A stretch of DNA of 31,144 nucleotides, from IMG/VR virus record IMGVR_UViG_3300012953_000121, positions 1-31,144 of that record; one strand, given 5' to 3'. A program made the position numbers and the translations under genes. This DNA comes from a virus. Taxonomy: Duplodnaviria > Caudoviricetes. This document shows positions 345 through 22,600 of this stretch, one piece after another (within the stretch, counting starts at the first letter, position 1; each line of letters starts with the position of its first letter). The notes under the pieces are model-generated. The model was not told the DNA's origin and searched no databases. It saw nothing but the letters and a program-made list of their open reading frames with translations.

Positions 345-548
345 TTAAGATGTTATCTGACCTGTAATTTGTTTTAATAAAGTCTTAATTTCATTAATAT
401 CTTTTTTCATCGCATCTAATTCTGATTTTTCATCAAGTTTTCTATTTTTAGTAGAAACATAATCAGAATATGAGTTAGTATCTGTACTAATTATTGCACC
501 TGTTTCTGGGTCACGAAACAGGTTTTTATGTCCTTCAACTGGTATCAT
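345..548 (-). CDS. cyanophage-type hypothetical protein (67 aa) with C-terminal coiled coil
   Basis: VEGHKNLFRDPETGAII motif recalled from small genes that follow vrlC in T4-like cyanophages; heptad-like C-terminus; ATGA overlap with the upstream ORF. Confidence 0.8.
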   Translation of the reverse strand: MIPVEGHKNLFRDPETGAIISTDTNSYSDYVSTKNRKLDEKSELDAMKKDINEIKTLLKQITGQITS

Positions 549-799
549 GCTTTTTTAATGGGTATAGTTCCCCTAATCAAATCATCCTCAGATGGTTTTT
601 TAGGATTTGTAATATTCTTATATTGACCATTGATCTTATCATCTTTAGAAAGTTTTGCCTGTGTATTTGGTTTTGGAATTGGTTCCAATTTTTTATATTT
701 TCCTCCAGGACCAAATAAATTTCTTATCCTGAAACCTTTATCTCTAAAAGTTTGAACAGCATTAGATGCTTCTTCTAAAAATTGTTTGAATGTTTTCAT
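545..799 (-). CDS. putative internal head protein with T4-type capsid-targeting leader (84 aa, Lys-rich)
   Basis: N-terminus MKTFKQFLEE/A resembles T4 internal-protein leaders (MKTYQEFIAE) and ends in a gp21-type L-x-E site. Confidence 0.65.
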   Translation of the reverse strand: MKTFKQFLEEASNAVQTFRDKGFRIRNLFGPGGKYKKLEPIPKPNTQAKLSKDDKINGQYKNITNPKKPSEDDLIRGTIPIKKA

Positions 800-959
800 A
801 GTAGAAAGTCGAAGTTTCCGTTCTGATTAAATTAAATGGATATTGCTTTAACTTATCCTCAACAGTTCTAAGATCTATTGGGAGATTAAATTTTACTAAT
901 TTGCCAGATCCACTAGGATCTATAATGAATTTAGTTGCTGGATTTACAGAGTTTCTCAT
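762..959 (-). CDS. hypothetical protein (65 aa)
   Basis: ATG overlaps the upstream stop (ATGA at 956-959) and the ORF fills the gap in the operon; 38-nt overlap with the downstream ORF; no recognised motif. Confidence 0.55.
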   Translation of the reverse strand: MRNSVNPATKFIIDPSGSGKLVKFNLPIDLRTVEDKLKQYPFNLIRTETSTFYYENIQTIFRRSI

Positions 960-1465
960 GAATAATGGAAATCCCTATCCTTTTTCTTGTCCTTTAACTT
1001 ATCACCTCTTTGTCTTGTTTCGCCAGTTTCACCATAACCATCTGGATGTGGACCTGGTTTTGCTGATCCTATATTATCTGGACTTCGTCCACTCTTATCG
1101 GTATAATGTAATCTAGCATCTTTACCAGCTTTCTTTGTAATAATTGATTCTTGACCATACTTAGCACCAAGTCGTCTCATCCTCTTACCAAATTCTCTCT
1201 TTGACATTCCAGCAGGACGTGTTGTTGCGTAAGAAACTTCACGAGCATCAGACCCATCATCGTACTTATATTTGCCAGTTGATTTTCTATAACCAATTTT
1301 ATTTTTTCTTAAATCACGTTCAAGACTTCTTCTTTTCTTTTTATTTTCATTTTCATCATCACCACGATCAGGTGATATATGACCAGTATCATGGGTCTCA
1401 GACTTACCAAGATATCTTGATAAACCTCCCTCACATAAAACTAAAAATTCCTGAAAAGATATCAT
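956..1465 (-). CDS. putative S-adenosylmethionine lyase (T3 SAMase / Svi3-3 family) with N-terminal capsid-targeting-like leader
   Basis: Motif order IS-x-x-R...N...L..DL...TG-x-Y66...E76-x-S...LG-x-KY-x-Q105-E106-SII...A-x-L-x-Y parallels T3 SAMase as recalled (VSAFR...N...TGCY...EEKT...EQDCVL...AGLVY). Leader is MISFQEFLVLCE/G. TAATG coupling to vrlC. Confidence 0.7.
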   Translation of the reverse strand: MISFQEFLVLCEGGLSRYLGKSETHDTGHISPDRGDDENENKKKRRSLERDLRKNKIGYRKSTGKYKYDDGSDAREVSYATTRPAGMSKREFGKRMRRLGAKYGQESIITKKAGKDARLHYTDKSGRSPDNIGSAKPGPHPDGYGETGETRQRGDKLKDKKKDRDFHYS

Positions 1466-4400
1466 TATGCTAAAGCAAGTGCTCTAAAGTCTTTAAGTCT
1501 AACTGGTACACACTCGTTAGTGGATGACATTACAATCTTAATTTTAAATCCACTGAACTGTTCTAAATCATTAACAGTAAATTGGTATTCAGAGAAGTCA
1601 TTCTGTCCACTCTTCTTGACTTTAGCATCAGAACTACCATCACTCATACCATAATCAATAACCTTATCACCATAACCATCACCATTAGTATCTATTAAGT
1701 TAGAATATCCAGGGAATGGTCTATAAACCTGAGAAGTTTCGCTAGAATCAGCAGAATATAATCTATAGTAAACTCTAAAGTCTGCTTGTGGTTGTACATT
1801 AGCAGCAACATAAACTTTTATTGAACTTGCAGGTTGTTGTAAATTAACCTTTTTAGTAACAAATATTGAACCATGTGGATCACCGATTAGTTGAGTAGAT
1901 CTAGTATCAGTTACATAATCATCAATAGGAGAATTAATTTTATTTCTACCTAGAACAAATGTAGCATTTTGAGCATCTAATACTGGTGATAAATTAGGAT
2001 CATTAGAAGTCATATCAACTTTGAGGGTAAGAGATGCATTTCTTGGAAGAGAATCTAATCTTTCTACCTCATTAACTAAAGAAGCTGCCATTCTAGGTGT
2101 TGGGAAGAATGTAGTTTCATTCAAGATAGTTGGTTCAAATCCCTGATCTAAGAATGATACTTCAGATCCATTAGCACTAGTACCACTTACAGTTCTATAT
2201 GAAGCACTAGCACGGGTTCCTTTACCAGGAGTAATAACATTAAATTTAGCAGAAGCAGAACTATATTGATGATTTTGAGAAATTCCAACCCGATTTCCAC
2301 CTACAGCTTTTTCATTTATAAAGTTTAATTGATTCTTACCTGATGCCCTATTACCACTTCCCCTATCAAGTTCTAAGTAATAATTATCAATATTTGATAG
2401 ATTTTTTAGAGTTTGGTTGGTTGGAATGGTATGTGTCTTATTAATCTTAGTTAATGGCATACCATTAACTTCATATGGTTGAATACTAGCACCAGAAGAA
2501 TGCGAAATAGAAGTTGTACCTTCAAGTCCCCTTCCAGTTAATGCTAACTTATTAACACCAACAACATATGATACAATCTCATTATTTAATAAAGCTTCAC
2601 CCCTATCAGTTGTTATTCCAGCCATGTATGTAAATGGTGTGGTTGAAGCAACATTTACCTCAACATCAGTAGCAGAAATATCATTTGTAGTTGCGGTTTT
2701 AATGCTATCTGGTTCAATCGACTCAATTTTAATACTATTATTAGCACCATGATGTCCATGATTATGTTGAATCACTTCAATAACATTTCCTGAGTAGATA
2801 TCATTAGTTACTACAGAATCAGAAGAAACTGTTATACCAGTAAGAACTGTTCTAGTATCGTTAGCAACTCCATAATGAATAATTTGATCACCTGTAACAA
2901 ATTTTTCTCCTTGAACATCAGTTAGATAAACGGTGTCAATAACATCAGTAATATCAGTAATTGTAAATCTAGCACCAGAACCATTAGTAACATCAGCACT
3001 AAGTGGAACATCAATTGTTAATACTTCACCAACTCTATAACCAGTACCAGATTGAGTTATACTATTAATAGTAATTGCTCCACCAGTAGCAATAGTTATA
3101 CTTAACGATGCTCCAGATCCATTACCATCAAGTGATCTAACAGGAACTGATCCCCAAGCACCACCAGTATTATAGTTAGCACCATTGGATGAAACTTTTA
3201 TTCCTAATAAAGGTCCACCTACATCTTCAATAACACCAGTAATACTATTATCTTCAGTATCAGCAACAAGACCTGTACTTATTTTTCTACCAACAGGTAA
3301 TAAAGCACGTTCTGTAGATGTAACGTTATTACTTAAACCAAATCTAATCTTTCTAGGAAGTGTTCTAATTGGATTGCTCATCATTGGCATTACATTCATA
3401 TTAGAAGGTTCAATAGAACTGTTGTAGAATGTACATGTACCAGCAGGAACAAATGCTGCTTTTCTAAGAGTAAATTTAAGATCTTGATACTGACTAGGTG
3501 TCCAAATTGTACCGTTTTGTGATTTGAATAAACTACCACCAATATACTGCTTAGTTACAACACCAAACTGAGAATCGTCAGTTGTTGCTGGTAATCCTAC
3601 AGGTGGAGTAACATTCTTTTGACCCATAGTAGCAACCCACATCTCATACTCATCAGATCCTGGTGATAAGAATACAATAGCATATTCTTTACCAGATTCT
3701 AAGAATACTGGTGATGGGAATTTAACTGTAGTTGCTACAGAAGCATCATCTGAAATAGCAATATCATTAGGATTTAATGCTACTTGAGCATATCCTTGTA
3801 CAAGGAAACTTGTAGGTGTTCCTAATTCAACTTCTCTAAGTTCAACAAAAACCTTAGCATTTGGATCTTTCTTATAGAAATAAACATCAAATGATGTTAA
3901 GAATGCTCCAGTTTCATCAACAGTAAATGTTTGTGCTAGAGGATCCCTATAAGGTGCTTCTATTCTTACAGTAGAAGAACTTGAATTTACACTTACGCTA
4001 GTAGTAATTTCATTGGGTTTCTGTGCAGGTTGGGGAGGATTTCTAACTCCAACAGTACCTGTGACTTGAGTTAAAATAGTACCAGTTCCACTATAAGTAC
4101 CACTAGCATCACTAGCAAGAGCAGTGCTTCCTGTAGGAACAAATGCTCCTGTAGTATTAGCAGTAAGTCTAAATGTTTTTGTTCCAGTATAGAATAATAC
4201 TGAAGGTTGAGGAGTTTGGTTGGGATCTCTGAAGAAGAATGCTCCCAAAACATCACCCCAATTATCTGACATAAGATCCATATTAGTTACTGTTGCTTCA
4301 GTACCAGATGTTTCTCCTATCAGTTTTGCACCCTTAACAACATAACCATAATAATTCTCATTATTTGCTAACTCACTAATATCACAATTAAATAATACAG

Positions 4401-7400
4401 ATGTTGATGAATACGCATTAGAAGGTGCAGGTCTTGATCTATCAAATGGATCAACACTATATGTCTCAACTGTAACTGCTGGATGACCTAATCCTGCAGC
4501 AAATTCTGGTCTAGTTGTATCCCCAAACTTATGATTTGGTGCTTGTGCTTTAACATAACCTATGGTATAAAACCCATTCATTACCCTAACATTTTCACCA
4601 ACTGTAAATCCATTACCAGATCCAGCAGTTGTTGAAATTTCAAGCAATTTGGGGAATATATCAGGTACTCCACTATCAAGTTTATGAATATGTTTTGTAT
4701 ATGGTTTTAAACCATTAGCAGCAAAATAAACATTTCTAGATCTCATATATGGATCTGTTTCACCATTAATCTTAACACTTTCAACATAATCAAATTCTTG
4801 ATTATTGCCAGTTAATTGATTAGTGAAACTAGTTTCTACAGTTTGTGTTGTAGTTGTAGTATGTGTTGTTGTAGTATCAGTATGATTACCACTAAATATA
4901 TCTTGATCCGCTTCAATTTCAGTTTCTGTCACATCTACTGAATTTTGAACATCAGTAGTATCAGAAACAACATTACCTATTGAATTCCAAGTATTACCAG
5001 TAGACTCTGTTCTATGATTATCAACATATATTGTCCTAGTCCAATTATCTGAAGGGGGATCTAACTGAATACCACCAACATAAACAATAACATTAAATGG
5101 GTTGATATTCTCAACACCAGATGCTTGTGGTTGTACTATCCAATCAGTTTCAGTGTAATCTAATGTTAATAAATCACCAGTTTTTTTACAATTTGGATCT
5201 AAAAGACTCAAATTAGATGACATATCAGCAGTATTTCCATCAATTCCTGGATTAAGTGCTAATACTGCTCTTAATGACCAAAAATCAACAGCACTTATTA
5301 ATTCTTTATTGACTACATCAACATCACATCTAGATCCATCCTCAACTCTAAAGTCAATAAAATCTCTATTTTTAAAATCATTAACAACAAATCCACTCTT
5401 AAATCTGTCTATACCATCAGCATCCTTAACTTGAAGTGATTTTGTATCTAATTCAAGAGCAGTTAATGAAGTCATTACTTCAAGGTTGGAAATCCTCTTT
5501 TCAAGTTTTCCAATATCCCTCATAGTAAATCTTCTATTATCATATAATTTAATCTTAGGTCCTTTAATAGGATCATAAAGATATGGTGGATAGGTTATCT
5601 GAGCAACTTCCATTGTATCGGAAACTTCAGTTGGTGGTGATGGTTTATCGTCAGAAACACCCTTAATAAGTTTAACCTCTTCAAATTTATTAATAACAAG
5701 TTTATCAATTCTAGGTAGATAATAACTATATCCTAAAATAGAACTTTCATCTGGAGTTACAACATACCTAGTTGTCGTTTCAAGTATTCTACTATTATAT
5801 GAGAATGGTGATGAAGTAGTTGCATCAGTAGGTTCAAACTTTTTAACTCTTGGTCTAAAATCAAGAATATCCTGACATCTATTACCAGATACTACTGGAA
5901 TATCATGAGTATATCTATCTTTTGTATAAGAATTGACAGTATAGAAATCTCCAGCAGTATTCAAAGCAGACTCATAGTAATCAAATATTACAAGTAGTCT
6001 CTTAGAAGGTGAAGCAGAATTTGCGGTCCTTACAAGTCTAGAATAATCTAGGAATTGTTTTCTATGACCTTTATCTAAAATAAAATTGCTAGTTCTATTA
6101 ATATAATTACCATTATTCAAACTTTGTACATTTGCAGTAATTTGAGATTCTTTGAAAGTAACACTTTCACCTTTAATAAAACTATTACCATTTAAAGGTA
6201 CATACTCAACTGTTGTATCAGAAACTCTATTAACAACTTGTGCGATAGCTCTACTATCAGCACCAACAATCTTTTCACCAATAAAGGTATTTGTATCAAG
6301 ACCCAATCCAGAAACAAAAACTAAACCATCTAAAGTTGGTTTAGAAGTATCTTTAGATTCATATACAGCATGAATCTTAACGGCATCAGGAACATTTAAT
6401 GATATTTCCTTATCTTCTACTCTCAATCCATAGGCACTACTAATTCCAAGATTTGTAGATCCATTGGATACACTAATAGTTTTTGTTATCTCAACTTGAG
6501 AACTTCTAATATAATTCTTAACCTTACTAGAAAGACCAAGTTTTTTCAACGTAGTATTTACAACTACATCACTATCCGTTGCCTTTGATAAATTACTAAA
6601 CCTTATAACACTACCATTACCAGTAATATTAACCTGATCTGATGTTAGAGGTTCTGTAGTACCATCTGAATAATGAATTGAATATCTTTCAGCATCAAAT
6701 GGTTCAAAAAATGCTGTTGTAATTCCTAAAGCAGCACCAGCACCAGAATTCTCCATAACAACTTCAGTTTTAAGTTCTAACGCATTACCTGCTACGGATT
6801 GAGTTTTAACTTGACGAGATATTATTAAACTTGAATTTGAAAGATCAACCGAAGATATATTCTTTTTCGGTAATCGAGTAAATAATCCAGAACGATTATA
6901 ATTAATTATCTTTGGAGTTTTAACTGTAAAAAGAGATGAAATTGTAGTTCCATTTGCTGGAATATCACCATAATTAACATCAGCAACTGTAGTAACATCG
7001 TCAAGTGTTAAGGTTGCCCCATCTGCTGAAATAGCACTAACTCTATTATAAACGGGATCACCTTGAGAATCTACTTTATATCCAACTATAGAATCAACTT
7101 TTAACCCTACAGCACCAGAAAATCTTCTATTTGGACAGGTTGCTGCTGCAGTACTAGTAGAACCAGTAATATTTAATTGATCTGTTATAGAGAAATTTGG
7201 TAAAATTCTATCATACAGAATAGAATCAGCAGTAAAATCTTTAGCATTACTACCAAATCCACCTACATCTTTTGACTGATAAACTGATTTTATATCTCCA
7301 GTAGAATACTGTGTAACCTTTGAAACCGATGCTGTAGATGTATTTACTCCAACATTACTAGTTTTCTCATTGAATATTAGTTTTTCACCAGAAATAAATG

Positions 7401-8988
7401 ACCCAGATGTATCACTAATGTCTATATTACCAGCACTTGGATGACCAGCAACAAATCCTTCAGCACCACTACTCATTCCTCTAACTTTAGATCCAAGTGG
7501 AGCTAAAGTATTTTGCTGATATGTTAGACCACCAGCACCATTTCCAATTTCTAGTTGTGTATATGTCTGAAGATCATACAAATATAAATCCCATTCAGTT
7601 TCATCTCCCTTATAACTATCATCAGCTAACCCAAAGGAATATACACGGGCTTCGCCAATTTTAGTACCACTACCAGCAGTTGGAACACCAGTTCCCTTTC
7701 TCTGACTGAAAAGATCTACAGTATTAGCAACATTACTTTCATTAGCACCAACATTAATATATGGAGTTCCATGTGGGTTATTAACTTTCAACAAACTACC
7801 CATTCTGAAAGGAACAGATCCAGATTGTATAGATTTAGTATCTCTTGGTTTATCTACATCCAATACAGTAGTTCCAGATAAAGGAACCTGATAACCTTTA
7901 ACATATGCTGTACCTGGTGATAATTCTACACATGCTAAATCATCATTGGGTATATTGAGTTCATCAGTTTTATCTCCCTCAACATACTTACCATTAGATC
8001 CCATCTCATCATTTAATGAGTTCTGAACACTAACATTAAAGGGAACTACAGCATAATTACCAGACTCATCATATGTTCTTCCAGCAATCCAATCTCTAAT
8101 AATATTATATTGAGACTTATTCTGTATTTTCTTTATTTCTCCATTCTTTACACGCAATACTTCTACAAAATTAGTATCATCAAAATCTTCAAGTGATTTT
8201 TTAGATAATTTTACACTAATTTTAAATCTATCAGCACCTGGAGCAGCAAAATTGGTAAAACCCTTTGCATTATCATTTAATGTAGTATCGTCATTTGAAT
8301 TTACTAATTCTTCAAGTACTTCCCAACCAACTCTATATGATGGCTTATTTGAATATGGTTCAAGTATAACTACAGATTTTGGAGTATCAACAAATGCTCC
8401 TCTTAAAAAATAGATACCAGAATCTACACCAACAGCAGATCCAGTTTCTGTAGCATTTTCACTGTTTAATGTTAAAATAGTATCTCCAGAAACTAATGTA
8501 GTATTTCCATAAGTAACATTTTGATCAAGTACTAATATTTCTCCGTTAGGAAAATGTGTACTCTCTCCAGCAGTATCGGATTCAGTATACTTTACAAAAA
8601 TCGTAATATCATCAACATTTTCTTCTGGTGGTAAAATATAATTTACAATTTTACCTACAATTTGAGAATTTTGTCCTCTTACTCGTGTACCTTCACCAGC
8701 AACTAAAGCATCAAGATATATGCTAACATCAATTCCTAGATGATCACCATTTACTTTACATGAAAAATATGTACTATCATACGTAACAGATCCAGGTATA
8801 ACCATAGATCCTTCTTTGAATATATGATTACCAAAAGATTCAACTTGATTCTGTAATATTGATTGAAGACCTGTTAATTCTCTTGCTTGAACTGGATATC
8901 CAGGTTTAAACAAAACCTTATAATAATTCTTCGCCTTATCAAAATCATCGTAATAAGGACTTATATTTAAATTAGTCTTTTGTGGCAT
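1465..8988 (-). CDS. VrlC-like / DUF4815-type large virion structural protein (2507 aa)
   Basis: N-terminal NLNISPYYDDFD...KVLFKPGYPVQARELTGLQSILQNQ, and internal RTYDESGNY, YYLPRIDKL, NRRFTMRDIGKLEKRI and DPLAQTF motifs; located directly after gp8 as in T4-like cyanophages. Confidence 0.85.
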   Translation of the reverse strand: MPQKTNLNISPYYDDFDKAKNYYKVLFKPGYPVQARELTGLQSILQNQVESFGNHIFKEGSMVIPGSVTYDSTYFSCKVNGDHLGIDVSIYLDALVAGEGTRVRGQNSQIVGKIVNYILPPEENVDDITIFVKYTESDTAGESTHFPNGEILVLDQNVTYGNTTLVSGDTILTLNSENATETGSAVGVDSGIYFLRGAFVDTPKSVVILEPYSNKPSYRVGWEVLEELVNSNDDTTLNDNAKGFTNFAAPGADRFKISVKLSKKSLEDFDDTNFVEVLRVKNGEIKKIQNKSQYNIIRDWIAGRTYDESGNYAVVPFNVSVQNSLNDEMGSNGKYVEGDKTDELNIPNDDLACVELSPGTAYVKGYQVPLSGTTVLDVDKPRDTKSIQSGSVPFRMGSLLKVNNPHGTPYINVGANESNVANTVDLFSQRKGTGVPTAGSGTKIGEARVYSFGLADDSYKGDETEWDLYLYDLQTYTQLEIGNGAGGLTYQQNTLAPLGSKVRGMSSGAEGFVAGHPSAGNIDISDTSGSFISGEKLIFNEKTSNVGVNTSTASVSKVTQYSTGDIKSVYQSKDVGGFGSNAKDFTADSILYDRILPNFSITDQLNITGSTSTAAATCPNRRFSGAVGLKVDSIVGYKVDSQGDPVYNRVSAISADGATLTLDDVTTVADVNYGDIPANGTTISSLFTVKTPKIINYNRSGLFTRLPKKNISSVDLSNSSLIISRQVKTQSVAGNALELKTEVVMENSGAGAALGITTAFFEPFDAERYSIHYSDGTTEPLTSDQVNITGNGSVIRFSNLSKATDSDVVVNTTLKKLGLSSKVKNYIRSSQVEITKTISVSNGSTNLGISSAYGLRVEDKEISLNVPDAVKIHAVYESKDTSKPTLDGLVFVSGLGLDTNTFIGEKIVGADSRAIAQVVNRVSDTTVEYVPLNGNSFIKGESVTFKESQITANVQSLNNGNYINRTSNFILDKGHRKQFLDYSRLVRTANSASPSKRLLVIFDYYESALNTAGDFYTVNSYTKDRYTHDIPVVSGNRCQDILDFRPRVKKFEPTDATTSSPFSYNSRILETTTRYVVTPDESSILGYSYYLPRIDKLVINKFEEVKLIKGVSDDKPSPPTEVSDTMEVAQITYPPYLYDPIKGPKIKLYDNRRFTMRDIGKLEKRISNLEVMTSLTALELDTKSLQVKDADGIDRFKSGFVVNDFKNRDFIDFRVEDGSRCDVDVVNKELISAVDFWSLRAVLALNPGIDGNTADMSSNLSLLDPNCKKTGDLLTLDYTETDWIVQPQASGVENINPFNVIVYVGGIQLDPPSDNWTRTIYVDNHRTESTGNTWNSIGNVVSDTTDVQNSVDVTETEIEADQDIFSGNHTDTTTTHTTTTTQTVETSFTNQLTGNNQEFDYVESVKINGETDPYMRSRNVYFAANGLKPYTKHIHKLDSGVPDIFPKLLEISTTAGSGNGFTVGENVRVMNGFYTIGYVKAQAPNHKFGDTTRPEFAAGLGHPAVTVETYSVDPFDRSRPAPSNAYSSTSVLFNCDISELANNENYYGYVVKGAKLIGETSGTEATVTNMDLMSDNWGDVLGAFFFRDPNQTPQPSVLFYTGTKTFRLTANTTGAFVPTGSTALASDASGTYSGTGTILTQVTGTVGVRNPPQPAQKPNEITTSVSVNSSSSTVRIEAPYRDPLAQTFTVDETGAFLTSFDVYFYKKDPNAKVFVELREVELGTPTSFLVQGYAQVALNPNDIAISDDASVATTVKFPSPVFLESGKEYAIVFLSPGSDEYEMWVATMGQKNVTPPVGLPATTDDSQFGVVTKQYIGGSLFKSQNGTIWTPSQYQDLKFTLRKAAFVPAGTCTFYNSSIEPSNMNVMPMMSNPIRTLPRKIRFGLSNNVTSTERALLPVGRKISTGLVADTEDNSITGVIEDVGGPLLGIKVSSNGANYNTGGAWGSVPVRSLDGNGSGASLSITIATGGAITINSITQSGTGYRVGEVLTIDVPLSADVTNGSGARFTITDITDVIDTVYLTDVQGEKFVTGDQIIHYGVANDTRTVLTGITVSSDSVVTNDIYSGNVIEVIQHNHGHHGANNSIKIESIEPDSIKTATTNDISATDVEVNVASTTPFTYMAGITTDRGEALLNNEIVSYVVGVNKLALTGRGLEGTTSISHSSGASIQPYEVNGMPLTKINKTHTIPTNQTLKNLSNIDNYYLELDRGSGNRASGKNQLNFINEKAVGGNRVGISQNHQYSSASAKFNVITPGKGTRASASYRTVSGTSANGSEVSFLDQGFEPTILNETTFFPTPRMAASLVNEVERLDSLPRNASLTLKVDMTSNDPNLSPVLDAQNATFVLGRNKINSPIDDYVTDTRSTQLIGDPHGSIFVTKKVNLQQPASSIKVYVAANVQPQADFRVYYRLYSADSSETSQVYRPFPGYSNLIDTNGDGYGDKVIDYGMSDGSSDAKVKKSGQNDFSEYQFTVNDLEQFSGFKIKIVMSSTNECVPVRLKDFRALALA

Positions 8989-8994
8989 TTTACT

Positions 8995-10605
8995 TTAGAA
9001 TTCCAGGATGATTTTAACGTCTTCTTTTTGTCGAGTATTTCGAGCAATCAGAGGTCTATTGTCTACATAAACAGTTTCCCCTGAGCCTTTATTTATCTCA
9101 GATTTAGATAACCCACTTGTAAAAGCAGAACCTAAGTTAATTTGCTTAGTTCCAGATGGATTTGTGGTTATTCCAGTATAACCATTATTGATATAACCTT
9201 TAAATCCAGAAGATTTACCCTCAACTACGGGACCATCGGATTTAAAGTCCCAAAACTTACCTTGAGTTGAAATACCAACATAATCTGTATGGTTCTGAGA
9301 ACCTTTATAATTTAGAGATCTATCTCTAAAGAATTTCAAAACTTTAGTTTCTTTATCAAAGGAAGCAACATATGCTCTTGCTATGTTTCCAGAAGCATCA
9401 ATTTTCTGCTCTATAACTTCACCAACTTCAGGAGTACCATCAACTTTTTTGGTAACATCATTACTATTTGGTTCATCATTAAAAATCATAGCATCCAATG
9501 ATGAGAATTGACTACCAGTAAATCCAGCAGCAACTGTACCACCAGTTCCACCAACTGTTGGATTTTTTATAATACCAACTTGAGCAAATTTAGTATCTGT
9601 TGGGAAATCTTTAGTTGAATCATCAAATCTAGCATAGATAAGAACCTTATCAGTTCCCAATTCGGTGTAAATGTCATAACCATGACCCTTACTTGGTGGA
9701 ATTATTGGAATCAATTCTGCTAGAGATCCAGAAGCAGTACTATTAACTGGTCCTAAATCTACCAATCCGTAGGTATATCCTTGTCCACCAGCACTAACTG
9801 TTACATCTGATATTACACCTTGATTAACATCAACTCTAGCTTTACCACCATATCCATCACCAACAATATCAACTTCTTGACCTGATAATGTTTGATATGA
9901 AGCTCCACCATTTTTAATATAAACATGCTTAATTTGGTTATCATTAACCTCAGAATCACCATTCTCACGAACAGATCTAATTTGAGGATCTGTACTTGTT
10001 GACCAATTATTTGGAACAGTAATGTATTCTGTAGAATCAAATTTTATAATATCACCTGGAGAAACACTATAAAGATATTTCCACAGATAACCATCACCAG
10101 ATCCACCTGCTTTTGATGGTTCTAAATCGGTAAATGTTGGTTCATCTTGTGAAACATTACCTTTTTCATTATCTCCACTAGAACCATTATCAATACAAAC
10201 ATAAACTTTGTAATCCGAGTTCATTACATAATACTCGGAATCATATAATCTATTAGCACTTTTTAATGGACTTGGATTAGAACTACTATAATCATCCCTA
10301 TAGATCTCATATCTAGTACCCGCTTTCCAATCAACTCTCTTTATAACACGACGAATATTGGCAGAAGTTATCTTCTTACCAAACATCATTGTATCCCCTA
10401 TATGGGAATTATTTGAAAAACTATCAAGTGGTTGTGGTGGATTAGTATTCCAATTAGAAGACCTACCATACCCTACAACAGTACTTTCTGTAAGTTTTGT
10501 TGGATTAGGTAAACCAATAAAAACGTAGTAATTATTATTATCAATAGAATCTACGAAATTACTAGCATTTAATATCCTAAATTGGTCGGTGACAATTGCT
10601 GGCAT
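8995..10605 (-). CDS. gp8: baseplate wedge subunit gp8 (536 aa)
   Basis: YVMNSDYKVYVCIDN, DGYLWKYLY and terminal VYVDNRPLIAR...QKEDVKIILEF motifs of T4 gp8 homologues; synteny gp6-gp7-gp8. Confidence 0.9.
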   Translation of the reverse strand: MPAIVTDQFRILNASNFVDSIDNNNYYVFIGLPNPTKLTESTVVGYGRSSNWNTNPPQPLDSFSNNSHIGDTMMFGKKITSANIRRVIKRVDWKAGTRYEIYRDDYSSSNPSPLKSANRLYDSEYYVMNSDYKVYVCIDNGSSGDNEKGNVSQDEPTFTDLEPSKAGGSGDGYLWKYLYSVSPGDIIKFDSTEYITVPNNWSTSTDPQIRSVRENGDSEVNDNQIKHVYIKNGGASYQTLSGQEVDIVGDGYGGKARVDVNQGVISDVTVSAGGQGYTYGLVDLGPVNSTASGSLAELIPIIPPSKGHGYDIYTELGTDKVLIYARFDDSTKDFPTDTKFAQVGIIKNPTVGGTGGTVAAGFTGSQFSSLDAMIFNDEPNSNDVTKKVDGTPEVGEVIEQKIDASGNIARAYVASFDKETKVLKFFRDRSLNYKGSQNHTDYVGISTQGKFWDFKSDGPVVEGKSSGFKGYINNGYTGITTNPSGTKQINLGSAFTSGLSKSEINKGSGETVYVDNRPLIARNTRQKEDVKIILEF

Positions 10606-10634: not shown

Positions 10635-10642
10635 TATTTATA
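10635..10642 (-). promoter_or_regulatory. T4-type late promoter (TATAAATA)
   Basis: tatttata on the plus strand in the 44-nt gp7/gp8 intergenic gap, about 30 nt upstream of the gp8 ATG. Confidence 0.85.
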
Positions 10643-10649
10643 GACATAA

Positions 10650-13600
10650 TTATACTTGTAATCTAATAGCACCTGTATTCCTTAATCCTTTAAGGGATCC
10701 TAGAGAATAATTTCTCCTTTGAATAACTGGGAAAGTAGATAATCCAGAGTCAATAGTTAATCCAGTAACACCAATCGAGATTGGATTTGTTGATCTAACT
10801 GTATCTGGTCCATACAATCTTCCCCATGAAATTGTTCCTAGAGAAGTTGTTATTCCAATATTTGTTTGATTATACTGTCCAGTGGAAGCTAATCCAACAT
10901 GATTAGTTGTACTTAGTATATTACAAGTAATCTCACCTGTTTTATCCGCAGTAGTAATACTATGAACTTTGTATATATTATCCAAGAATGTTGTACCGAT
11001 ACCAACTACTGAAGTCTCGTGACTATCAATAGAAGTAACACCGTCACCAATCTTAGTATCCTTAATAGAAATTGGATAACCAATTCTCAAATCACCTGCC
11101 TGATTTCCATCAATAGTCTTAAAGAAGAATTTAATAGCAAGTGGGTTATTATTCGTACCAACAGCAGTTCCAATACCTGTAATTATTCCAGTAAATCCTT
11201 GAGCAAACTTAAATAACTCAATTCTTTCTGTCTCATAGGTAGGACTTTCAATAATAACATTTGGTACTCTTCCTGTATACAATCCAACATTAGTAACAGT
11301 TGCTGATGTAACAGAACCATTTACAATTGTTGTTGTTGCTGTAGCAGTAGTTCCTATTCCAACACCAATCATTGGTGGAGCTGATAACTTAATAGTAGGA
11401 GCAACTGTATAACCTGATCCACCATCAGTGATAGTTATTGAACTAACCTGTGATGTAGCAGCACTAACAACAACTTCTGCTGCGGCTGGGCGTTCTACAC
11501 CACTAGCTGGCATCATTAATGCATCAACAGCATCAACTGTAATACCATACCTTTCAGAACTAGGGAGGCGAAGTGGTCCTTCCTCATAGAAGAATATTTC
11601 AGCATCATCTACAAATATTCCATCTTGTAATCCAAGACCAATACCAGAAGTTTCATTAACATCTGAAATAATCTTAGAAGTTGGATATACACAAGGTTCA
11701 ATAGACTCTCTTGCCTTAGATACTAAAGATCCTTGAATAACTTTATCAACCTTTTGCTTAGTCCAACTAAGTGGTTTATCATCATCTTCATTAATACCTC
11801 TACCAGAATATACATCAGTTTCAATCAAGTCAGATGTTAGAATTTCTTTTACAACTCTTTCTCTATCTTGTGTAATTGAATCTGGTAATGATGGATGGCG
11901 ATATATTCTTACATCATCACCTGGTTTGATAGTTTCTTGAATATCAATAATTTCAACATCAATACCTCTTTGTCCAAGATAGAAGAATATATCAACCTTA
12001 TCACCACCATCTGGTGCTTCAGTAAATGTAAATGTAGTTCCACCTTCAAACTGATAAGCAGTTCCTGGTGTTTGTAGTACACCATTTACAAATATTAAAA
12101 GAACAGCATTTAAGTTGATATCTGAAGATAGTGGATCCGATTCGTCCTTTTCAAAACTCAACAACTGCCCATTAAAGAATAATGGGAATCTTCTTCTAAC
12201 TCCATTTTGCATTGATTTAATATCATCAATGAAATCTATTTCTCCAAATTGCCATGCTGAGAAGAAATCATTGAATATTTCAACAACTTCTAATTCAAAG
12301 TCTTTTAATGGTTCCTCAACTTCGGCAGAAGTAACCATTCCAATTGGAGTAAATCTATCACCAACTTTAAATGAATGACCTGGTCTAGCAATATCAAATT
12401 TTGATATTTCAAATAATGTAGAAGATATACCAACAGAAGTTTGAGCAGCACCTACTGCAAGGTTAAGTAGAAGATTGACTCCAGTTTCTGTCGTTTTTCC
12501 AATACCAAGTCTAGAAATACCCTTAACTGGTATATTTTCATAATTTGGTTCAGGGCAAATAATTTCTGGATTAACATACCCAGTTCCACCAGCAACAACG
12601 GTAAATTCTAAAGATCCACCAGTTCCATATGGAGATCTGCCAACATTAATACTAAATTTAGTAGTACTCTCAATACCTTCAACACCCACAGGTCTATTAT
12701 AAACAGGATCAGTTGTTCTTGGATAAGAATGATTTGTAGCATAACGATCCTTATTACATGTAAGTGTTAGAGAACCAGCAACAATCTCAACTGTATTATT
12801 TGCTCCCATAATATTTCCAGCTTCAGATCTCTCATAACTATGAGATGATGTGTTTGTTGAAGGTACGGAAAGTAAACATTGAACCTCAAATTTCTTAGCA
12901 GTTACATTTGAAACTTGTGTCCACTTATTAAATAATGGATCACCCTTTCTTGGATAACTATGCTCACTAATAAATCCATCCTTAGCACATTTGAATACTA
13001 AAGAGTTCTCAGCAATCTTAACATAATCACCATTACTAAATCCATGATTTGTATTAGTAGTAACGGTTAATATTCCAACATTTGGATTATATACAGCATT
13101 TGTTGTGTTCTTAGTAATAGCAGCAGTAAATCCATGAGCAGCAGATGTAGTTACAGTCATAATTCCACATTGTGGATCATAATCAACCGTATCTGCCGTG
13201 AAAGGACCTCCAGCATTTGCTGTAATTCCTTCATATTGATAAGGAATACCAACATTACATGTAATAGTACCACCAGACTGATCTACAGCAGTAATTGCTA
13301 ATGCTGTATTATATGCTGGATCAGTTGTGCGAGGATATGCGTGTTCTGTAGCATGATTATCAGCATCGCAAGTAAATTTAAGTGCTTTATGTGCGATAGT
13401 TACAGTATCACTAGTACTGAAAGTATGAGATCCTATCGTTAATACCAATATTCCAGTACTTGGGGTATATACAGCATTAGTAACATCCTTTTTAGTACCG
13501 CCAATGGTAACGGCATTGCTTATAGAACTCTTGTATATGTGAGTGCCAATAGAATTTACAAACCTATGTGTATTTTTAGCAATTTTGGCAGTTACAATTG

Positions 13601-16600
13601 CTCCAGTACCAGCACCACCACCAGGACCAACATCAGTCATAATTGTATTCTGAGTTGTTGATGTTATTGGTAAGAATGTATCATATGCTGGATCAGTTGT
13701 TCTTGGATAGGTATGCTCACCATCATAATCATCCTTAGAACAAGTGAAGGTTAATGAATTTGTAGCGATTTTAAGAGATTTTGTTGCTCTAACTCCGTTA
13801 GTAGTTGCCGAATCAAATGTATGAGTATAGAATCCACCAGATTTAACGGCATTCGCAGTAGCACCTTCAAATGTATGAATATCAGTATTAGTTGAAGGTA
13901 CAGTGGTTAATACTTGTAGTGTAATAGTAGTTTCAGTTACTGACTGAATAGGAATAGCAGTATTATAGAATGGATCATTAGATGGTCTAGGATAAGATTT
14001 TGTTCCACCACTACCATAATTACAACTGAATGATATTGATTCAGGTTCTAACCTGACACTTTCGCCCTGTTTTAGAGTATGAGAACCAATTTCTAATACC
14101 ATTAATCCAGTAAATGGATCATATGTAGTTCCTGTAGTTGGTGTATGCCCAACTAATGGACTTGTACCAACATTAACTTCAAAATCTGTTGCAGTTACGT
14201 TAGATACTATTAACCACTTATCACTTGATGGGTCGGTTGATCTTGGATATGAATGAGTAGTGGCATTATTGTCCATACCACATTTAAATGTTATAGAATT
14301 ATCAGCAAACCTAACTTGCTCATTATTAGTAAAGACTCTTGGAACAAATACTGCTCCAGCAGTAGCACTAACAAATGTATGAACATCTGTATTAGTAGAA
14401 GGAGTAGTACTTAATACTTTTACAGAAATTGTTCCAGCAGCAATATCTACAGCAGTTATATCTAAGAAAGTATTATATCCAGGATCAGGAGTTCCAGCAT
14501 TTACACCTGTTCCACTTGCTCTTGGGTACGTCTTTTGAGCAGCAGTACCAGTAGCACCACCATATCCACAACTAAATGTTAATGAATTTGGTACAAGCTT
14601 AAGTTTATCATTGGTATCTAAATTATGAGTACCAATAGTTAATACCATAATACCTGTAGTAGGATCATAAGTGGCATCACTAACATCATAATTTGTTCCA
14701 GCAGTGGCTGTTAATATACCAACTCTAGCATCATATTGAGCATCTTTAACAGTTATATCTACTGGACCTGCTATACCATGTTCACCGAAAGTCATTAATA
14801 AATCACCCGTAGATGAAGTATAATCAATAGCGATTGGTGTCAATGTTTGACCCATGAATCCACCAGTGTATGCTGTAATTGAATCAGCATCAGATCTTAC
14901 AAATTTATGATCATAAGCAATATCATTAACAGAAATAGATACTGGTTCACGATAACCAGAACCATATGTTAATTGATTTTCATAACGCCAAACTGATCCA
15001 CCACCAACATAAGTATGTGGAATACTAGTAATACCACAATCAACTTGGAAACTTCTTGCAGAACTAACTCCAACTAATTGAAGTGGTCTTTCATGATCTT
15101 GGAATATTGTTGTAGTAACTCCTACATATCCACCACCACCAATTGTTCTTACAGCGTTAGATGTTGCTGAAACGAACGTGTGTGCGTCTGTATTGGTAGG
15201 TGTAACACCAAACAATACATTCACCTTAAATGTATCTGTAGTAACGTCAGAAACGTACATATACCTATCATAGGCAGGATCAGTTTCTCTTGGATATGCC
15301 TTTTGAGCAGCAGAACCAGTAGCACCACCATATCCACAACTGAAGATAATTGATTCCTTTTCTAACTTAACTGCATCACCATTTGAAAGTCCATGACCAG
15401 CAATTGTTATTACCATATCACCTGTTGCTGGATCATATGTTGTACCTGTAACAGGAGTACCAACAGCATTAGTTGGGCATATAAATTGCAAATCTTCCAA
15501 TTTAACAGTATTTGGACTTCCTAAACCAAATCCATGAACCTCATTAGTAGTAACTGTTATGATTCCAATATTATTATCATAATGAGCAGTTTGAATACCA
15601 CCACCTATTGGTCCAACTGATGTTCCAGCACCAGTAACACTAACTATAGATCCACTTTGTAATTTGGGATATACTCTAGCACCTACAAGTGGAGCGTAAC
15701 CAACACCAGTAGTAGAACCCATAGAAACTATTATGCCACCTCTTGGAACCTGATTCTGATTAATATCAAATTCTGATTGAATTAGTTGTCCATTTTCGGA
15801 ACTAATTCCAGTAAAGGTAACGCTAGAAACTCCAGAAACAACGTCTGCTTCAATTTCATAATTATTACCTAAGTTATTGAGTGTTAGTGGTGTCTGGAAT
15901 ACTCCATTAATGAATAAAATACCATTTCCCACACCAACACCTGAAGAAGTATTAGCACCACCAACAGTTAAACTGTAAGTTCTTCCAATTCCAGTAAAGT
16001 TATCTGAAATATCATCAAATACCATATTGGTATCATAATTTGTTCTTAAGAAAGTTCTTCCACTAAATTCTGCTTTAACGTAAGGTAGATTAGTTAAATT
16101 TCTTCTAGTTCTAGTATTACCTTTAGGTGGATCTAAGAACCATGCTGTACTATCAACTATATTGTAAGATCCTCTGAATACCTGAACATTAGATCCAGAA
16201 TTATGAGTTGTAGGTAAGATTCCAAGAGCACCTCTCTTAACCTTAACTACTGGAATAGTCCCATTCCAAGAATTAATTGTACCACCTACAGATTCAGCAA
16301 GACCAACTTCCTCAACCTTCATATATTCATCATCAATTTTTATTACATCTCTTGGTTGTACTGAACTAATACCACTTAAAGCAAACTGAGATAATCCAAT
16401 ACCGATAGTAGTTGGAAGTGTATGATTAATAGAAGTATATGTAACTGGTTGTTGAATAATACCATCAAGGCCAATAACAGTTTTGCTTATCTTTTTACCC
16501 ATTTCAAGTTTATGGGCGTTACCACCACCAACATTTGTTACTTCTATTGGCAATCCAGTAGCAATATATTCCCTTCTACTGAATAATTGGAAAGTATCTG

Positions 16601-19600
16601 GTGTTAATGCTTTTACATACACCTCTGATGGCATTTCAGTAACCAATTGCCCAAGATTATTTGTAGTTTGAGCAATACCACAAGGTGCTGCAGCAACACC
16701 AATAAATGATGAATATGCTTTATAATTTAATATCTCATTCGTATTGAAGAAATGATCTGGTATGGTAAAGGTTGTTCCAGCACCAGCAGAAACAGTAAGT
16801 TGACTGCTATCTGGATTAAATGTCTTATAATAAATTGGAATACCTTCATGTTTAAGATCAAAATTAACTCTATTTCCTCTAGTTCCATTAAGACCGTCAT
16901 ATGATGATAATACTAATTCAGTACTTACTGGACCAATCTGTAAAAGAGGTGGTTCATTCTCAAAATCATTAATAGTTTGATATATCTCAGAATAAGCCTG
17001 AACTTCAACAGTTGATGAAGAATATGCTGCATCTGGATAGAAATCAAATCTAACTTTATTGTTTACAGTATCTGTAACTGTACCAAAAGTTCCTATACCA
17101 CTTATGTCACCTATTGAAACATGAGGATATTGGACAGTTACAGCATCATTATTCACATCTTGAATAACAACTGCTTGATGTATAGCACTATTCTGCCCAG
17201 AAGTAACTTTTAATATAGACTTAGCTGAACTATCAACAAGACCATCAAGGGTGAAAATAGGTATTGAATTTCCATTATCTACCGCATTATAGTTTGACTC
17301 ATATCTTACTGTTCTTTCAGAACCATCTGGTTGTCCTGAAACTTTATATCTGTATGTTCCTATACCAGCAGTTGTAGTACCTAATCCAACAACATTAGCA
17401 CTAAGAAGTAATTTAGATGATTTGTCGTTAATACAATCAAAGTAAATTGTACCAGAATCAAATCTAGCAGTTAATACACCAACTTTACTATTAGAACTAG
17501 AACTATATGTAACGCCTAAAACGTCAGTATATGATTCTGTAATATAGGTGTCTGTACCATCAAAATTAACAATAACTTCATTATAATCTAACTCACCAGA
17601 AGCATCATCTTTAACTAAAACATTAGCAAAGAAAGCATTAAAGTTTGTAGGTGAGAATTGTAGTATATTTGTTGTAGTAGTACCTGTAACAACAAGATTA
17701 CCACCACTCATTGCTGTTTGAGCAGCAGCAACCTGTACATTTTTACCAATTAAATCTATAGATCCAATTTCTTGAACAGAGTCAGATATTGTATCAGTAT
17801 TAAATGATGTTTTTAAAACTTTAATATCAAAATCCTTTTCAAATTTTTCAAGTGGTGTAAATTCTAAAGTCTTTCTATTGAAATAATCGACATTAGTTTT
17901 AAATTCACCTAGTAAAGTATTTGAAAAATCGGTAGATCTCTCTAAGATATAAGCACTATCAGTTGAAGTTAGTACAATTAAATCGGTAAATTGTACATCA
18001 AAAGTATCAGCATCAACAACTTGTATATGGTACTTTATAAAGTTTGTACCAATTTCCTCTATTTCAGTATATTGATCTTGTCCTCCCTTACTTGAAAACT
18101 TACCACTTATATCGTCATGGATCAAAACTCTATTTGTTTTACACTTAGTAAAATCGGTTAACTTCTTATGTTTGAAATCAATAAACTTAGATTTATTATC
18201 TCTAGCATCATAATCTATAACATGATCAAAATCATTAATTGTATCTACTCTCTTTTCACCAAACACATCAAGTATAATAACCGCCTTTGATGCCTCTGTG
18301 GATCCCAGACCCACCCGAACATCAACATTAGTCTCTAACAACGTATCAGAAAAATTCTTCAATCCAGAGGGGTGTATAACCCTATTAAGAGGATCAACAA
18401 ATGATTCCCAAGTTTCGGAACTTCTAACAGAATATGAAAGATTTTGATAATAATCATTATTCGGTATTACTTGGAAGTCTTCATTCAACATTCCAGTATT
18501 ATTAGTCCAACCAATTTCCCTTCTATTTGAGAAACTAACATCAAATTTAGCACTATTTGCTGTAATTCCAGTAACAGTAGCAGTAACACCACTATACTGT
18601 CCAGCAATTCTATCTCCAACTTTAAGATTATATAACCCGCTTGTTTTAATAAAATCTTCTCTAATTTCTACTGCCTTAAGATCTTTCTTCTGGAAAGTAC
18701 CTGTTTGGTTCTCTTTAACCAATATTGGTTCATCTGGTGAGAACTTAGATCTTTGTTGAACAGGTGAAAATACTGGTAATTTATTTCTATTTACAATATT
18801 AGCATAACCAGATTGATAAGTTTTAGCAATACCTGGATTAGTAGTTAAACCAACTAAATCAAATTTTAAAACATCTGGATTTGATGAAATATAACTTTTA
18901 ACTTTAAAATATTGATAACCATGATTTGATGAATTCCACCCTTCACCATCAGTTGATATACCACTAGATGATGAAGCTTGAGTACCAATACCAACTTCTC
19001 CAAATAACTGTATACCTTCAACAAAAATTTCATCATCAACCGCAAATGGTGCTACAGTATATCCATTAATAGGAGTTTCCATAACACAAGTAGCTTCCGT
19101 CCCATCCACAGTCATGGAGTTAATACCAATTCCATTAGAATTGTTAATAGCAATAACTCTATGTGTTACAGAATCTAGTCCTTTAATAGGAGCAATAACA
19201 TCAACACCAGCAACACCTTGATTGGGGGAAATAGCTTCTAATGAAGTACTATCAACGACTTGATTAGATTCTGGATTGTATAGTATTAAATCGGGGGCAC
19301 TTAAATAATCACTTCCAGTATCTACAACAGAAATTTCTTCAATAAAGTCTAAATCATCAATTCTAACAACAGGAGAAATAAATGCTTCAGGTCTTAAAGT
19401 ACTATCAGAGGAATATTCATATCCAATATCAACAATTCGTAAATTATTAATCCTACCAATAGATGTTGATAATGCTACAATATTAGCATTAGAACCACTT
19501 ACACTATTAACTGAAGTAAATTTAGGTAATTTCTTATAACTAGATCCTTCAGAAATTAATTTTATACTCTTTATAGGACCAGATACAGTATTTGACTTAC

Positions 19601-22600
19601 TTGAGTATTCAATATTATCACACTGATCTTCTTCATATCTCAATACTTCAGGAATTGCTCTAGGCGAATATTTAAAAGTTTCAGTAGTAATATCAAATAC
19701 TTCATAGTCACCTGAATACTTACTATCAGTGAATAATATTTGCGAATAATTATTAACATCCTTATCAGCAGTACTAATATACCCACCCTTTTCTAGAGCA
19801 TAATATAGAATGGCTGGCATTGCTGTAGAGAATCCTACCGATACCGCAGCACCAACTAAAGGACTGGATAAAAATGTACCAATACCTATCGTACCAATAC
19901 CACTAATATTAAAGGTATTAAGATCTGTAGCAGTAACAAATTCATTCTTAAATTCCTTATCATAGAAGAACTTGAGTTTATAGTCTGCTAAATTAAATGA
20001 ACTAACACCAAAAGTTAATTGTGAATTTTTAACTACTGGTATTTGGGGATTAACCAATGAAATACTATGCCCACTTCCACCAGCAGTAAAATCAATCATT
20101 CTAGGTGGTGATGAGAAGGTATCATTATAAGTTTCAGATAAATTAAACTTATTTGAATCTACTAAATGTATATAATAACAACCTGTTGTTATTCCAGAAA
20201 CGATATCACCATCACAACTATAAAAGATCTTATCTCCAGTTTTGTATCCATGATCAGTAATTGTTATGGTGTCTTTAATCGTATCAACATCTGATCCATC
20301 AAATCCAACAGGATTGATTAATAATTTCTGATATTGCTCATTATAATCTAAAACTAATGGAGCAGTAGAACCCAATCCAACTGTTGTATTTGGTACAACA
20401 TTAATACTAACTTTATCACCATTCAATAATCCATGAGTTGTAGTATTAGCAGCACCTATTTTTGTAGTTACTGTGCTAACAATTCTATCAACATTACATC
20501 TTATTTGTTCAAACGTTGTTTCTATCTTGTATTCATAATCATTAGTAGCATTACTATAGAAGAATAATCCAGATTCAGTATTAGCAGCACCTACATTAGT
20601 AGCAAGACCAATAAAATCACTACCCTTATCAACTACATACAACTCGGATGAACTTGAAGTTTGGTCGGGTAGATAGAATTGTTGAGAACCATCAATTTCT
20701 CTACCAACAAGTAATGATTGGGCAGATGCTTCTTTAGTGAATATAACTCTTTCTCCACCCTTAAATGGATGTTTGGGTAAATAAATGCTTTGAGAAGGAA
20801 CATTAACTTGTTTTGTACTTTCACCAATAGTGTAATCAATAACACTTCCACAAGTAGTACCAACACCAACTGCTAAATTGGCATTAAAAAATTGAACTAA
20901 ATTTAAATCAGATTTAAATTGGTTAGTTTTAACTGGTATACTAATACGATTATTCAGTACATCAATTTTAGATCCATAAGCATGAGCAATACCTGAAGTA
21001 GGTCTATTAACTCTTATAATGCCCCCAATATCATATAGGTTCAATACTTTAAGACATTCATCACCTACCCTAAGTGATCCACCTATAGAAACTGTATTTG
21101 GAATATAATTTACGTAAATATCCTCAACAGCACCATTTGAATTGTTTTGAACTGACATTGTTTTTGCCAATCCAATAACATCAGTATGAATACCAACGCT
21201 AAATGAATCATTTAATTTGTATATTGATGTAGTAAGACCTGATATTAAAACGGTGTCTTTATCATTAAGTTCAATGGTTGGTAAATTATGTACCATAACC
21301 TCAGTATCACTTTGCCATACTAATACAGCATTTTCAAAAGTAGTTAATTCAGTATTAATACTAGAAACACCAATACCTACTATCTCATCAACTTGACCTC
21401 TAGCACCACCACCATTTGTATCATCATCATTAAATACAGTAAAATCACCAATTTTATAACTATCCCCACCATCTAATATATCAAATCCATCAACAACACC
21501 TCTAGTTACTGATTCAACTACAGATTTCTGCTTAATTATTTCATTTGATTCTATGATAAAGTCATTATCAGCATATTGTTCATTAACTTTATATGGGAAA
21601 GTATTTCTAGAAAGATTACTATTATTAAAATCAAATGATTGATCTAAAATTGTATTTTCTTCAATGTAAGGTAATCTGTAAGTTTCTCCAATAAAATATG
21701 GATATATGGGAACACCATTCTGATCTACAGTAGCAAAATAAGCATAAACCCCATTTGGGAACTCTGGAGTTTTACAAAATCTTCCATTGTGAATATCTAA
21801 ATCACCAGAACCATCAAAAACATTATCTTCTACGAAGAATCTTTCATTATATTCATTGACTGTTGGACGATCTTTATAGTCATACTTCTGAATATAACTT
21901 GGAAGTAATCTCTTAATTCCTGAGTTAATATCAGAAGGATCCATATAACCATATGATCCATATATTGGATTACCGTCATATGCCCAACCAATTAATGCTG
22001 AGTGTGTACCAATACCAGCACCAGTAACACCACCATTATCACCTAATCCTTGTGATATAGTATTAGTATATGCGTGAACACCAAATTGTAATAAATCCTC
22101 ATTAAGTGGTTCAAGATGATATTCAGACTGCCATTGATAATTATCAATACTTAATTTTCTTATAGTAGCACTTAATAAAGCATTCTTACCTTTAGAATCT
22201 ACATAAACATTCGCATTTGTAGAATATCCAATACCTGGATTAATTACAACTATATCAGATAATTGACCTAAACTATTAATAACTGGTTTTAATTTACAAC
22301 CACTGCCAGGAATTTTAGAATCAGCAGCATCAACTATATCAAGATTAGGTAAAGACCAATATTCTTTACCTTTATTGAGAACTTGAACATCAACAATTTT
22401 GCCACTTTCTATTATTGGTCTTACTTCAGCAGTTCTTCCATTCTGTATAGTTACTTTTGGCGTAAAATAATGTCCAGAAACTTTACTTCCATACTTACTA
22501 CCACCATCATACAGATAAGCACCTATCATTTCACCTGTAACAATAGGAGTAAAGTTTATTTTTCCAGAAACACTTGAAGCATAAGAAACATTGACATTTA

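Follow-up and report, generated by a model that had tools for sequence, protein, structure and literature searches.

A SAM-lyase family gene at the end of a baseplate gene run

The gene at positions 956 to 1465 (minus strand) of the DNA analyzed here raises a question of place and timing: why would a T4-like phage encode a SAM lyase behind its baseplate genes, with a predicted leader of the type that directs proteins into the T4 head? By gene content, the window, that is, the whole 31,144-nucleotide (31-kb) stretch, comes from a T4-like cyanomyophage of marine cyanobacteria. Its minus strand carries a run of gp25, gp6, gp7, gp8, and a 2507-aa baseplate-region gene of PHROG 358 (1465 to 8988, minus strand; function not annotated), followed by the ORF in question, which encodes a 169-aa protein (P0001) assigned to the SAM-lyase family by Pfam profile, diverse profile search, and fold match. 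Gene order is identical in Prochlorococcus phage P-SSM2, including that around the 2507-aa gene, and PSSM2_114 is 65% identical to the window lyase. An earlier reading made from the letters alone (the sequence-only reading) had proposed a TAATG coupling of the lyase to an upstream gene that it called vrlC. The coupling was borne out, as the lyase ATG shares base 1465 with the TAA of the 2507-aa gene in a one-base overlap, but no database result gave the name vrlC for this PHROG 358 gene. In phage S-SZBM1, the counterpart of the 2507-aa gene is a virion protein annotated as a baseplate wedge tail fibre connector. The very basic composition ascribed to the lyase was also found, with a pI of 9.74 and 40 K+R against 27 D+E residues (24% K+R).

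The region from 545 to 1465 (minus strand) is a modular array 3′ of the 2507-aa gene, in which the lyase and two small ORFs are each absent in some relatives, with clean joints. The first small ORF, of 65 aa (762 to 959, minus strand), is ATGA-coupled to the lyase stop and is an optional module present in 6 of the 34 loci that share the 2507-aa upstream gene. The second, of 84 aa (545 to 799, minus strand), has its own T4-like leader (F4, F7, E10) and a counterpart in PSSM2_115, and was found in 16 of the same 34 loci. Leader-bearing ORFs gather near lyase genes more generally (45/416 within 600 nt versus 12/797 farther away), which suggests a cassette of packaged cargo.

The protein belongs to the T3/Svi3-3 family of SAM lyases

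The identity of the product as a SAM lyase is well supported. Residues 36 to 136 match Pfam PF23780 (S-AdoMet_lyase) at 30.5 bits, above the cut-off of 28 (E = 3.8e-7), and the ESM Atlas neighbors of the protein are PF23780 clusters at 0.94 to 0.95. Searches of the PDB with the single sequence or with close relatives matched no lyase, and a diverse profile was needed: one built from 76 relatives returned the T3 SAM lyase 7OCK (E = 5.4e-5) and Svi3-3 6ZM9 (E = 0.0019) as its sole two PDB matches at E values up to 10. The sequence-only reading had called for comparison of a predicted structure with these two enzymes, and the outcome was a clear fold match. The AlphaFold model (mean pLDDT 74, pTM 0.71) matched 7OCK best (Z 13.7, rmsd 3.0, 136 aligned residues, model 16-169 on chain 4-150) and 6ZM9 second (Z 7.7, rmsd 3.3, 101 aligned), with unrelated rows at 6.2 or below; on both matches it shows the ferredoxin/PII-like fold with the C-terminal strands of SAM lyases. 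The SAM-AMP lyase 9GAB lay inside this background (Z 5.7, rmsd 3.7, 90 aligned). PHROG 2226, "SAM-dependent methyltransferase," was also matched (E = 0.019) and was rejected as a function, the records so labeled being T3-type 0.3 genes that are also called SAM hydrolase.

All motifs quoted in the sequence-only reading are in place, namely I30-S31-x-x-R34, N41, L48, D51-L52, T63-G64-x-Y66, E76-x-S78, Q105-E106-S107, and A117-x-L119-x-Y121. Three of these could be placed on Svi3-3, the residue correspondence being read from the sequence-profile alignment, and were scored in 52 representatives (below 60% identity, chosen from the 182 near-full-length cores in a set of 233 proteins). G64-x-Y66 (1268 to 1276, minus strand) corresponds to G56-x-Y58 of Svi3-3, which serves in ribose packing and sulfonium contact, with G in 52/52 and Y/W/F in 50/52; E76-x-S78 (1232 to 1240, minus strand) corresponds to E69-x-S71, with E in 52/52 and S in 50/52; and Q105-E106-S107 (1145 to 1153, minus strand) corresponds to Q104-E105-S106, with Q in 52/52 and D/E in 49/52. 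G64, E76, and Q105 are likewise invariant in all 76 aligned relatives. These are exactly the three residues, Gly56, Glu69, and Gln104 of Svi3-3, that the text available to us of PMC7877911 lists among the conserved ligand-binding residues and as strictly conserved in the tested SAMases, so that the invariant columns agree with that study; the same source reports that the E69Q exchange lowered Svi3-3 activity 4500-fold. Taken together, these computational data show, by family and fold, that the ORF belongs with the SAM lyases of the T3/Svi3-3 family.

A predicted capsid-targeting leader is shared by the family

We confirmed in the ORF translation that the lyase begins with MISFQEFLVLCE followed by G, as had been claimed. 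Residues 1 to 12 (1430 to 1465, minus strand) form the predicted capsid-targeting leader, with F4, F7, and then L10-C11-E12, and the predicted cut falls between positions 1430 and 1429. In T4, according to the accessible text of PMC9026906, targeting depends on leader residues 4 and 7 and processing on residues 8 and 10, and gp21 cleaves after L/I-x-E; IPII and IPIII both start MKTYQEFIAE (read from NC_000866). The claim of a T4-type leader therefore stands for F4/F7 and the (L/I)xE site, but not for the spacing, since P0001 has its P1 Glu at residue 12, whereas IPII and IPIII have theirs at 10. Both spacings occur among relatives, with Glu at 10, or at 12 or later, and many relatives begin almost like T4 IPIII.

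The site is widely kept. E12 is present in at least 90% of the 76 aligned relatives. In a 12-residue window positioned by P0001's own site, (L/I)xE stands directly before the domain in 39/52 representatives, compared with 8.1% of 12,183 other windows, and hydrophobic-x-E in 46/52, against a background of 17.4%, leaving 6/52 without it. An N-terminal aromatic-x-x-aromatic was found in 25/52 representatives, and among the best-ranked IMG/VR loci 95 of the 126 distinct lyase ORFs carried the leader pattern, versus 0.7% of shuffled N-termini. The leader is also present on the members from PANV1, Slicko01, and Campylobacter phage CP220. It is absent from T7-like lyases (0/3), in which just 1, 2, and 8 residues precede the core; their placement in a tree of 60 lyase cores, which has few columns, is not settled (91/7). 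The CP220 homologue is CPT_0131 (L178, 4974-5603), and this phage also encodes 11 radical-SAM proteins.

In long relatives, the lyase domain ends a basic polyprotein, with an internal copy of the leader just before the domain. The (L/I)xE motif occurs in the polyprotein extensions at 1.7 times the expected rate, compared with 1.1 in controls, and their K+R content is 24%. S-SZBM1 gene 194 (L009, 23252-25375, minus strand) and P0087-P0110 are such proteins, with the lyase as the last module of 400 to 760 aa and several (L/I/V)xE sites. Indirect support for a protease that shares the T4 cleavage rule comes from the head proteins gp21, gp22, and gp23 of two cyanophages, which are rich in the motif, with L/I two residues before Glu in 60/197 cases versus 83/477 in 12 non-head proteins; in two small putative core proteins of cyanophages, (L/I)xE was found at 0/23 Glu.

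Right after the predicted cut, the model and alignment place a helix at residues 14-24 with a conserved R17 (1394 to 1426, minus strand), which is kept in distant leader-bearing relatives. The fold match begins with model residue 16 aligned to T3 residue 4, and extrapolation from the range ends would put the predicted mature start, G13, close to the T3 start. We found no support for the suggested autoinhibition by the leader, given that residues 1-13 are modeled at pLDDT below 50 and that leader length ranges from 10 to several hundred residues among relatives. Overall, the N-termini make a strong case that the leader is a trait of the lyase family, T7-like members excepted, and packaging of the lyase and its cleavage between E12 and G13 appear likely.

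Promoters and timing

The sequence-only reading had placed the nearest late promoter at 10635 to 10642. The T4-type late consensus TATAAATA is indeed there (minus strand), between gp7 and gp8 and 9.2 kb upstream of the lyase, but a one-mismatch late promoter-like site, GATAAATA, lies nearer, at 9090 to 9097 (minus strand) in the 3′ end of gp8 and ∼100 nt before the 2507-aa gene; both sites are identified as consensus matches. Exact copies of TATAAATA are not enriched in the window, with 3 against 6.9 expected by chance, and each of the three sits in a gap, with a gene start ∼30 nt downstream.

We also examined upstream sequence at 160 loci (the best 80 of 538 plus the best 80 of 164), which contain 155 lyase ORFs. 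Of these ORFs, 126 were distinct with 70 nt upstream; the loci are related and hence not independent samples. The core TAAATA, picked after ATAAATA gave 43/126, was found within 70 nt of 72/94 lyase ORFs not coupled to the upstream gene, mostly 18 to 34 nt from the start, compared with 4% of random windows and 103/769 other ORFs. Among coupled relatives, 0/32 had a promoter of their own, as is the case for the window lyase. An internal early promoter, which the sequence-only reading had named as an observation that would speak against late expression, was not in evidence between 1 and 11000, where 38 sigma70-like sites were counted against 56 expected. The portions of the PMC7238727 and PMC6708340 supplements available to us held no timing entries for the lyase gene. 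Contigs from marine RNA libraries span the gene but are uninformative on its transcription, level, and timing; their shares were small (0.08 to 0.14).

Homologues in virion proteomes

Evidence for packaging comes from cyanophage S-CREM2, whose ORF6, a "SAM hydrolase," was detected in CsCl-purified virions (19 unique peptides, 26.3%), as reported in 2023 in the text available of PMC10665884. Its authors proposed that ORF6 enters the host and shields the DNA from R-M, and cautioned that such proteins may be co-purified. We found that ORF6 has the leader, which would put its mature start at S21, and its own TATAAATA 22 nt upstream, is 36.5% identical to the window lyase over residues 1-138, and falls in the same supported clade (95/94). 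Across the 219 S-CREM2 genes, the strict leader was present in 4/52 virion proteins versus 0/167 others (p = 0.003), a test that is partly circular in that five N-termini, including the strict matches ORF6 and ORF14 (2/4), were seen before the pattern was fixed. With the P0001-type pattern, 5/8 carriers were in virions (p = 0.02), and with the relaxed pattern, 10/37 (p = 0.37). A leader of the same kind is found on S-CREM2 ORF12-15, 136, and 154 (L001, 3751-9378; L005, 7301-8014 and 24608-25468), virion proteins that comprise a kinase, a cytidylyltransferase, and several of undefined function. A virion cytidylyltransferase of S-SZBM1 also has a leader.

The S-SZBM1 proteome was different. In the accessible data of PMC9146016, the 707-aa homologue is absent among the 30 virion proteins detected of 218, and the same fixed leader patterns were not enriched in virions (1/4, p = 0.45; 1/5; 4/25). 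The CP220 homologue was not among 11 virion gel bands, a shallow sampling, and no usable virion proteome was found for PANV1 in PMC9239159 or in PMC9964418. Late expression, head targeting, and the cut between E12 and G13, as proposed in the sequence-only reading, are thus favored by conservation across the family and by one homologue in virions, whereas the second proteome brought no confirmation. Trypsin would release from P0001 itself only 6 peptides in the 7-35 residue range.

Distribution and accessory status

A tblastn search located the lyase protein in 37 of 50,697 phage records: 35 belong to cyanophages or marine single-cell viruses and 2 to Alishewanella phages; the family was matched also in Lak phages. 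In contigs assembled from marine RNA libraries, position 958 is joined to 1469 in two runs of one sample, a skip of 510 that is exactly the gene, and in one run of a second study a contig joins 795 to 1462. We read these contigs as probable related phages without the lyase gene and not as RNA processing. The exact 510-base absence in relatives fits an accessory gene and speaks against a structural role. In a scan of genome contigs, close lyase homologues (L175, L176, L177) were seen at three loci in unrelated assemblies, namely an archaeal MAG, a gammaproteobacterial MAG, and one of Nonlabens; these contigs are probably stray phage DNA.

Proposed function and alternatives

We propose that the gene encodes a late-made SAM lyase that is loaded into the head and, upon injection, cleaves the SAM of the next host to weaken SAM-dependent restriction, a reading to which we assign a probability of about 0.55. 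Its steps differ in strength. With G64, Y66, E76, S78, Q105, and E106 intact, the trimer would very probably cleave SAM to MTA and homoserine lactone. Transcription would be late, together with the baseplate operon, which we expect almost as firmly. A little less securely, but with good confidence, the F4/F7 leader would recruit the lyase to the prohead core, where a gp21-type protease would cut between E12 and G13 and leave a start near that of the T3 SAMase. By analogy with T4 internal proteins, the enzyme would then probably be ejected with the DNA and refold. Should the steps up to ejection hold, the gain would be protection from type I/III restriction or BREX, systems carried by a minority of hosts; this is the weakest step, and we lean only slightly in its favor.

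An anti-restriction/BREX purpose of the window lyase is plausible. The T3 SAMase counters type I R-M, as described in the available text of PMC7877911, and is reported to counter BREX as well. In the part of PMC6708340 that was accessible, however, 13 of 17 marine cyanobacterial strains are without known defense systems, complete type I R-M is found in 2, probable type III in 2, and complete BREX in 0. This scarcity of SAM-dependent defenses makes the anti-defense target the weaker part of the reading, although a patchy gene is consistent with patchy host defense. The phages also have SAM-consuming enzymes of their own, with an adenine methylase encoded two genes from ORF6 in S-CREM2 and a SAM decarboxylase and a cytosine methyltransferase in S-SZBM1, so a late active lyase would starve them at a cost to the phage; quick packaging may limit this cost.

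The same host survey bears on a second reading, host takeover, in which the packaged and injected lyase lowers SAM for a short time, possibly while binding SAM synthetase like the T3 SAMase, with the result that host methylation stalls and sulfur/one-carbon flux shifts before phage genes are read. Hosts that mostly lack SAM-dependent defenses would fit it, as would the kinase and cytidylyltransferase among the other leader-bearing S-CREM2 virion proteins and the best fold match, which is the T3 SAMase in complex with SAM synthetase. We consider it rather unlikely, since the tested phage member of known role, the T3 SAMase, is an anti-restriction and anti-BREX protein in the sources available, and the patchy presence of the gene (37/50,697 records, with exact gene loss) fits patchy host defense; a few injected copies would, moreover, be unlikely to alter metabolism for long.

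The enzyme could instead act late in the producing cell, for example by ending methylation, with the leader sequestering it, or with the protein co-purified, so that nothing useful is delivered. The missing homologue in the S-SZBM1 virions (PMC9146016, as far as its data were accessible), the co-purification raised in the available text of PMC10665884, and the 6/52 representatives without even a relaxed hydrophobic-x-E site all agree with this. Against it, conservation of the cut site (E12 in at least 90%) equals that of near-catalytic residues and persists even where the domain ends a polyprotein of 700 aa that has its own internal copy of the leader, and so conserved a site is hard to account for without maturation inside the prohead. 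We therefore regard action in the producing cell as improbable.

Two further alternatives are very improbable. The substrate might be a SAM-derived signal (SAM-AMP or another), as for the phage enzyme AcrIIIB4, given that the SAM-AMP lyase has the same fold and E/Q pair and that 9GAB was matched at Z 5.7, but the T3 SAM lyase scored far higher (Z 13.7), the profile search gave T3 and Svi3-3 only, and CRISPR is uncommon in these hosts according to the accessible part of PMC6708340. A catalytically irrelevant, DNA-condensing filler of the head built on a lyase fold would suit the pI of 9.7, the 24% K+R, and the basic polyproteins among long relatives, but not the invariance of G64, E76, and Q105 in 52/52, the near-neutral pI (7.9) of the leader-bearing PANV1 relative, or the dispensability of the gene in relatives.

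Relation to known systems

The lyase family, its chemistry, T4 capsid targeting, and a virion-associated cyanophage SAMase (2023, PMC10665884) are already published. The window lyase resembles T3 gp0.3 (PDB 7OCK, 8BB1) and Svi3-3 (6ZM9) in fold and in the G-x-Y, E-x-S, and Q-E-S motifs. However, T3 makes its enzyme early from first-entering DNA (PMC7877911, in the text available), whereas the window gene lies among structural genes of a probably late operon and its product starts with a predicted packaging leader; the window lyase is also more basic (pI 9.7 compared with 5.0-8.3). S-CREM2 ORF6 is a homologue from a T4-like cyanophage with leader and late promoter, but it has 414 aa, a long C-terminal extension, and another gene neighborhood, compared with 169 aa here. 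The main text of PMC10665884, in the form available, does not mention capsid targeting, an internal protein, a leader, the N-terminus, or a late promoter, and its passages covered here describe no activity assay.

With T4 IPI, IPII, IPIII, and Alt (PMC9026906, accessible text), the lyase shares aromatics at 4 and 7, an L/I-x-E site, and a basic mature protein, although its leader is two residues longer than that of T4 internal proteins. The predicted cargo also differs, being a metabolite-destroying enzyme, whereas, in the sources available, IPI* inhibits a nuclease stoichiometrically and Alt acts as an ADP-ribosyltransferase. SAM-AMP lyases and AcrIIIB4 (PMC12255297; bioRxiv 2025.04.28.651013) share the PII-like fold and the catalytic Glu and Gln but are linked to type III CRISPR, and they gave a weaker fold match (Z 5.7) and no profile match. 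No published link between a T4-type leader and SAM lyases was found among the matches listed, in which subscription papers and supplements are thinly covered; PMC7824862 does not mention SAM. Since each part has a precedent, in the T3 SAMase, T4 internal proteins, and the 2023 virion detection, the reading would extend known biology rather than overturn it.

If true, the proposed packaging and injection would let a catalytic anti-defense enzyme arrive with the DNA, solving a timing problem that T3 meets by entering slowly and expressing its enzyme very early. It would also explain the route of the SAMase into S-CREM2 virions, provide a sequence rule for finding the injected cargo of T4-like marine phages, and raise the question of which SAM-dependent process in marine cyanobacteria merits attack at time zero. 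A broader and tentative proposal, one we would not yet bet on, is that T4-like phages of cyanobacteria, Alishewanella, Paraglaciecola, Campylobacter, and Prevotella share a SAM-lyase lineage whose members undergo maturation by the prohead protease, in some cases through release from basic polyproteins, and are injected to attack host SAM catalytically from time zero. Its persistence in Prochlorococcus, which is mostly without type I R-M and BREX, might then point to an undescribed SAM-dependent defense, and the leader could help to catalogue the enzymes that marine myophages inject.

Two other features of the window are noted. At the gp7 position, a baseplate gene of 5073 aa (10650 to 25871, minus strand) is close in size to the 5195-aa span of PSSM2_111, and directly upstream of gp25 is an auxiliary gene for a 2OG-Fe(II) oxygenase (28321 to 28941, minus strand).
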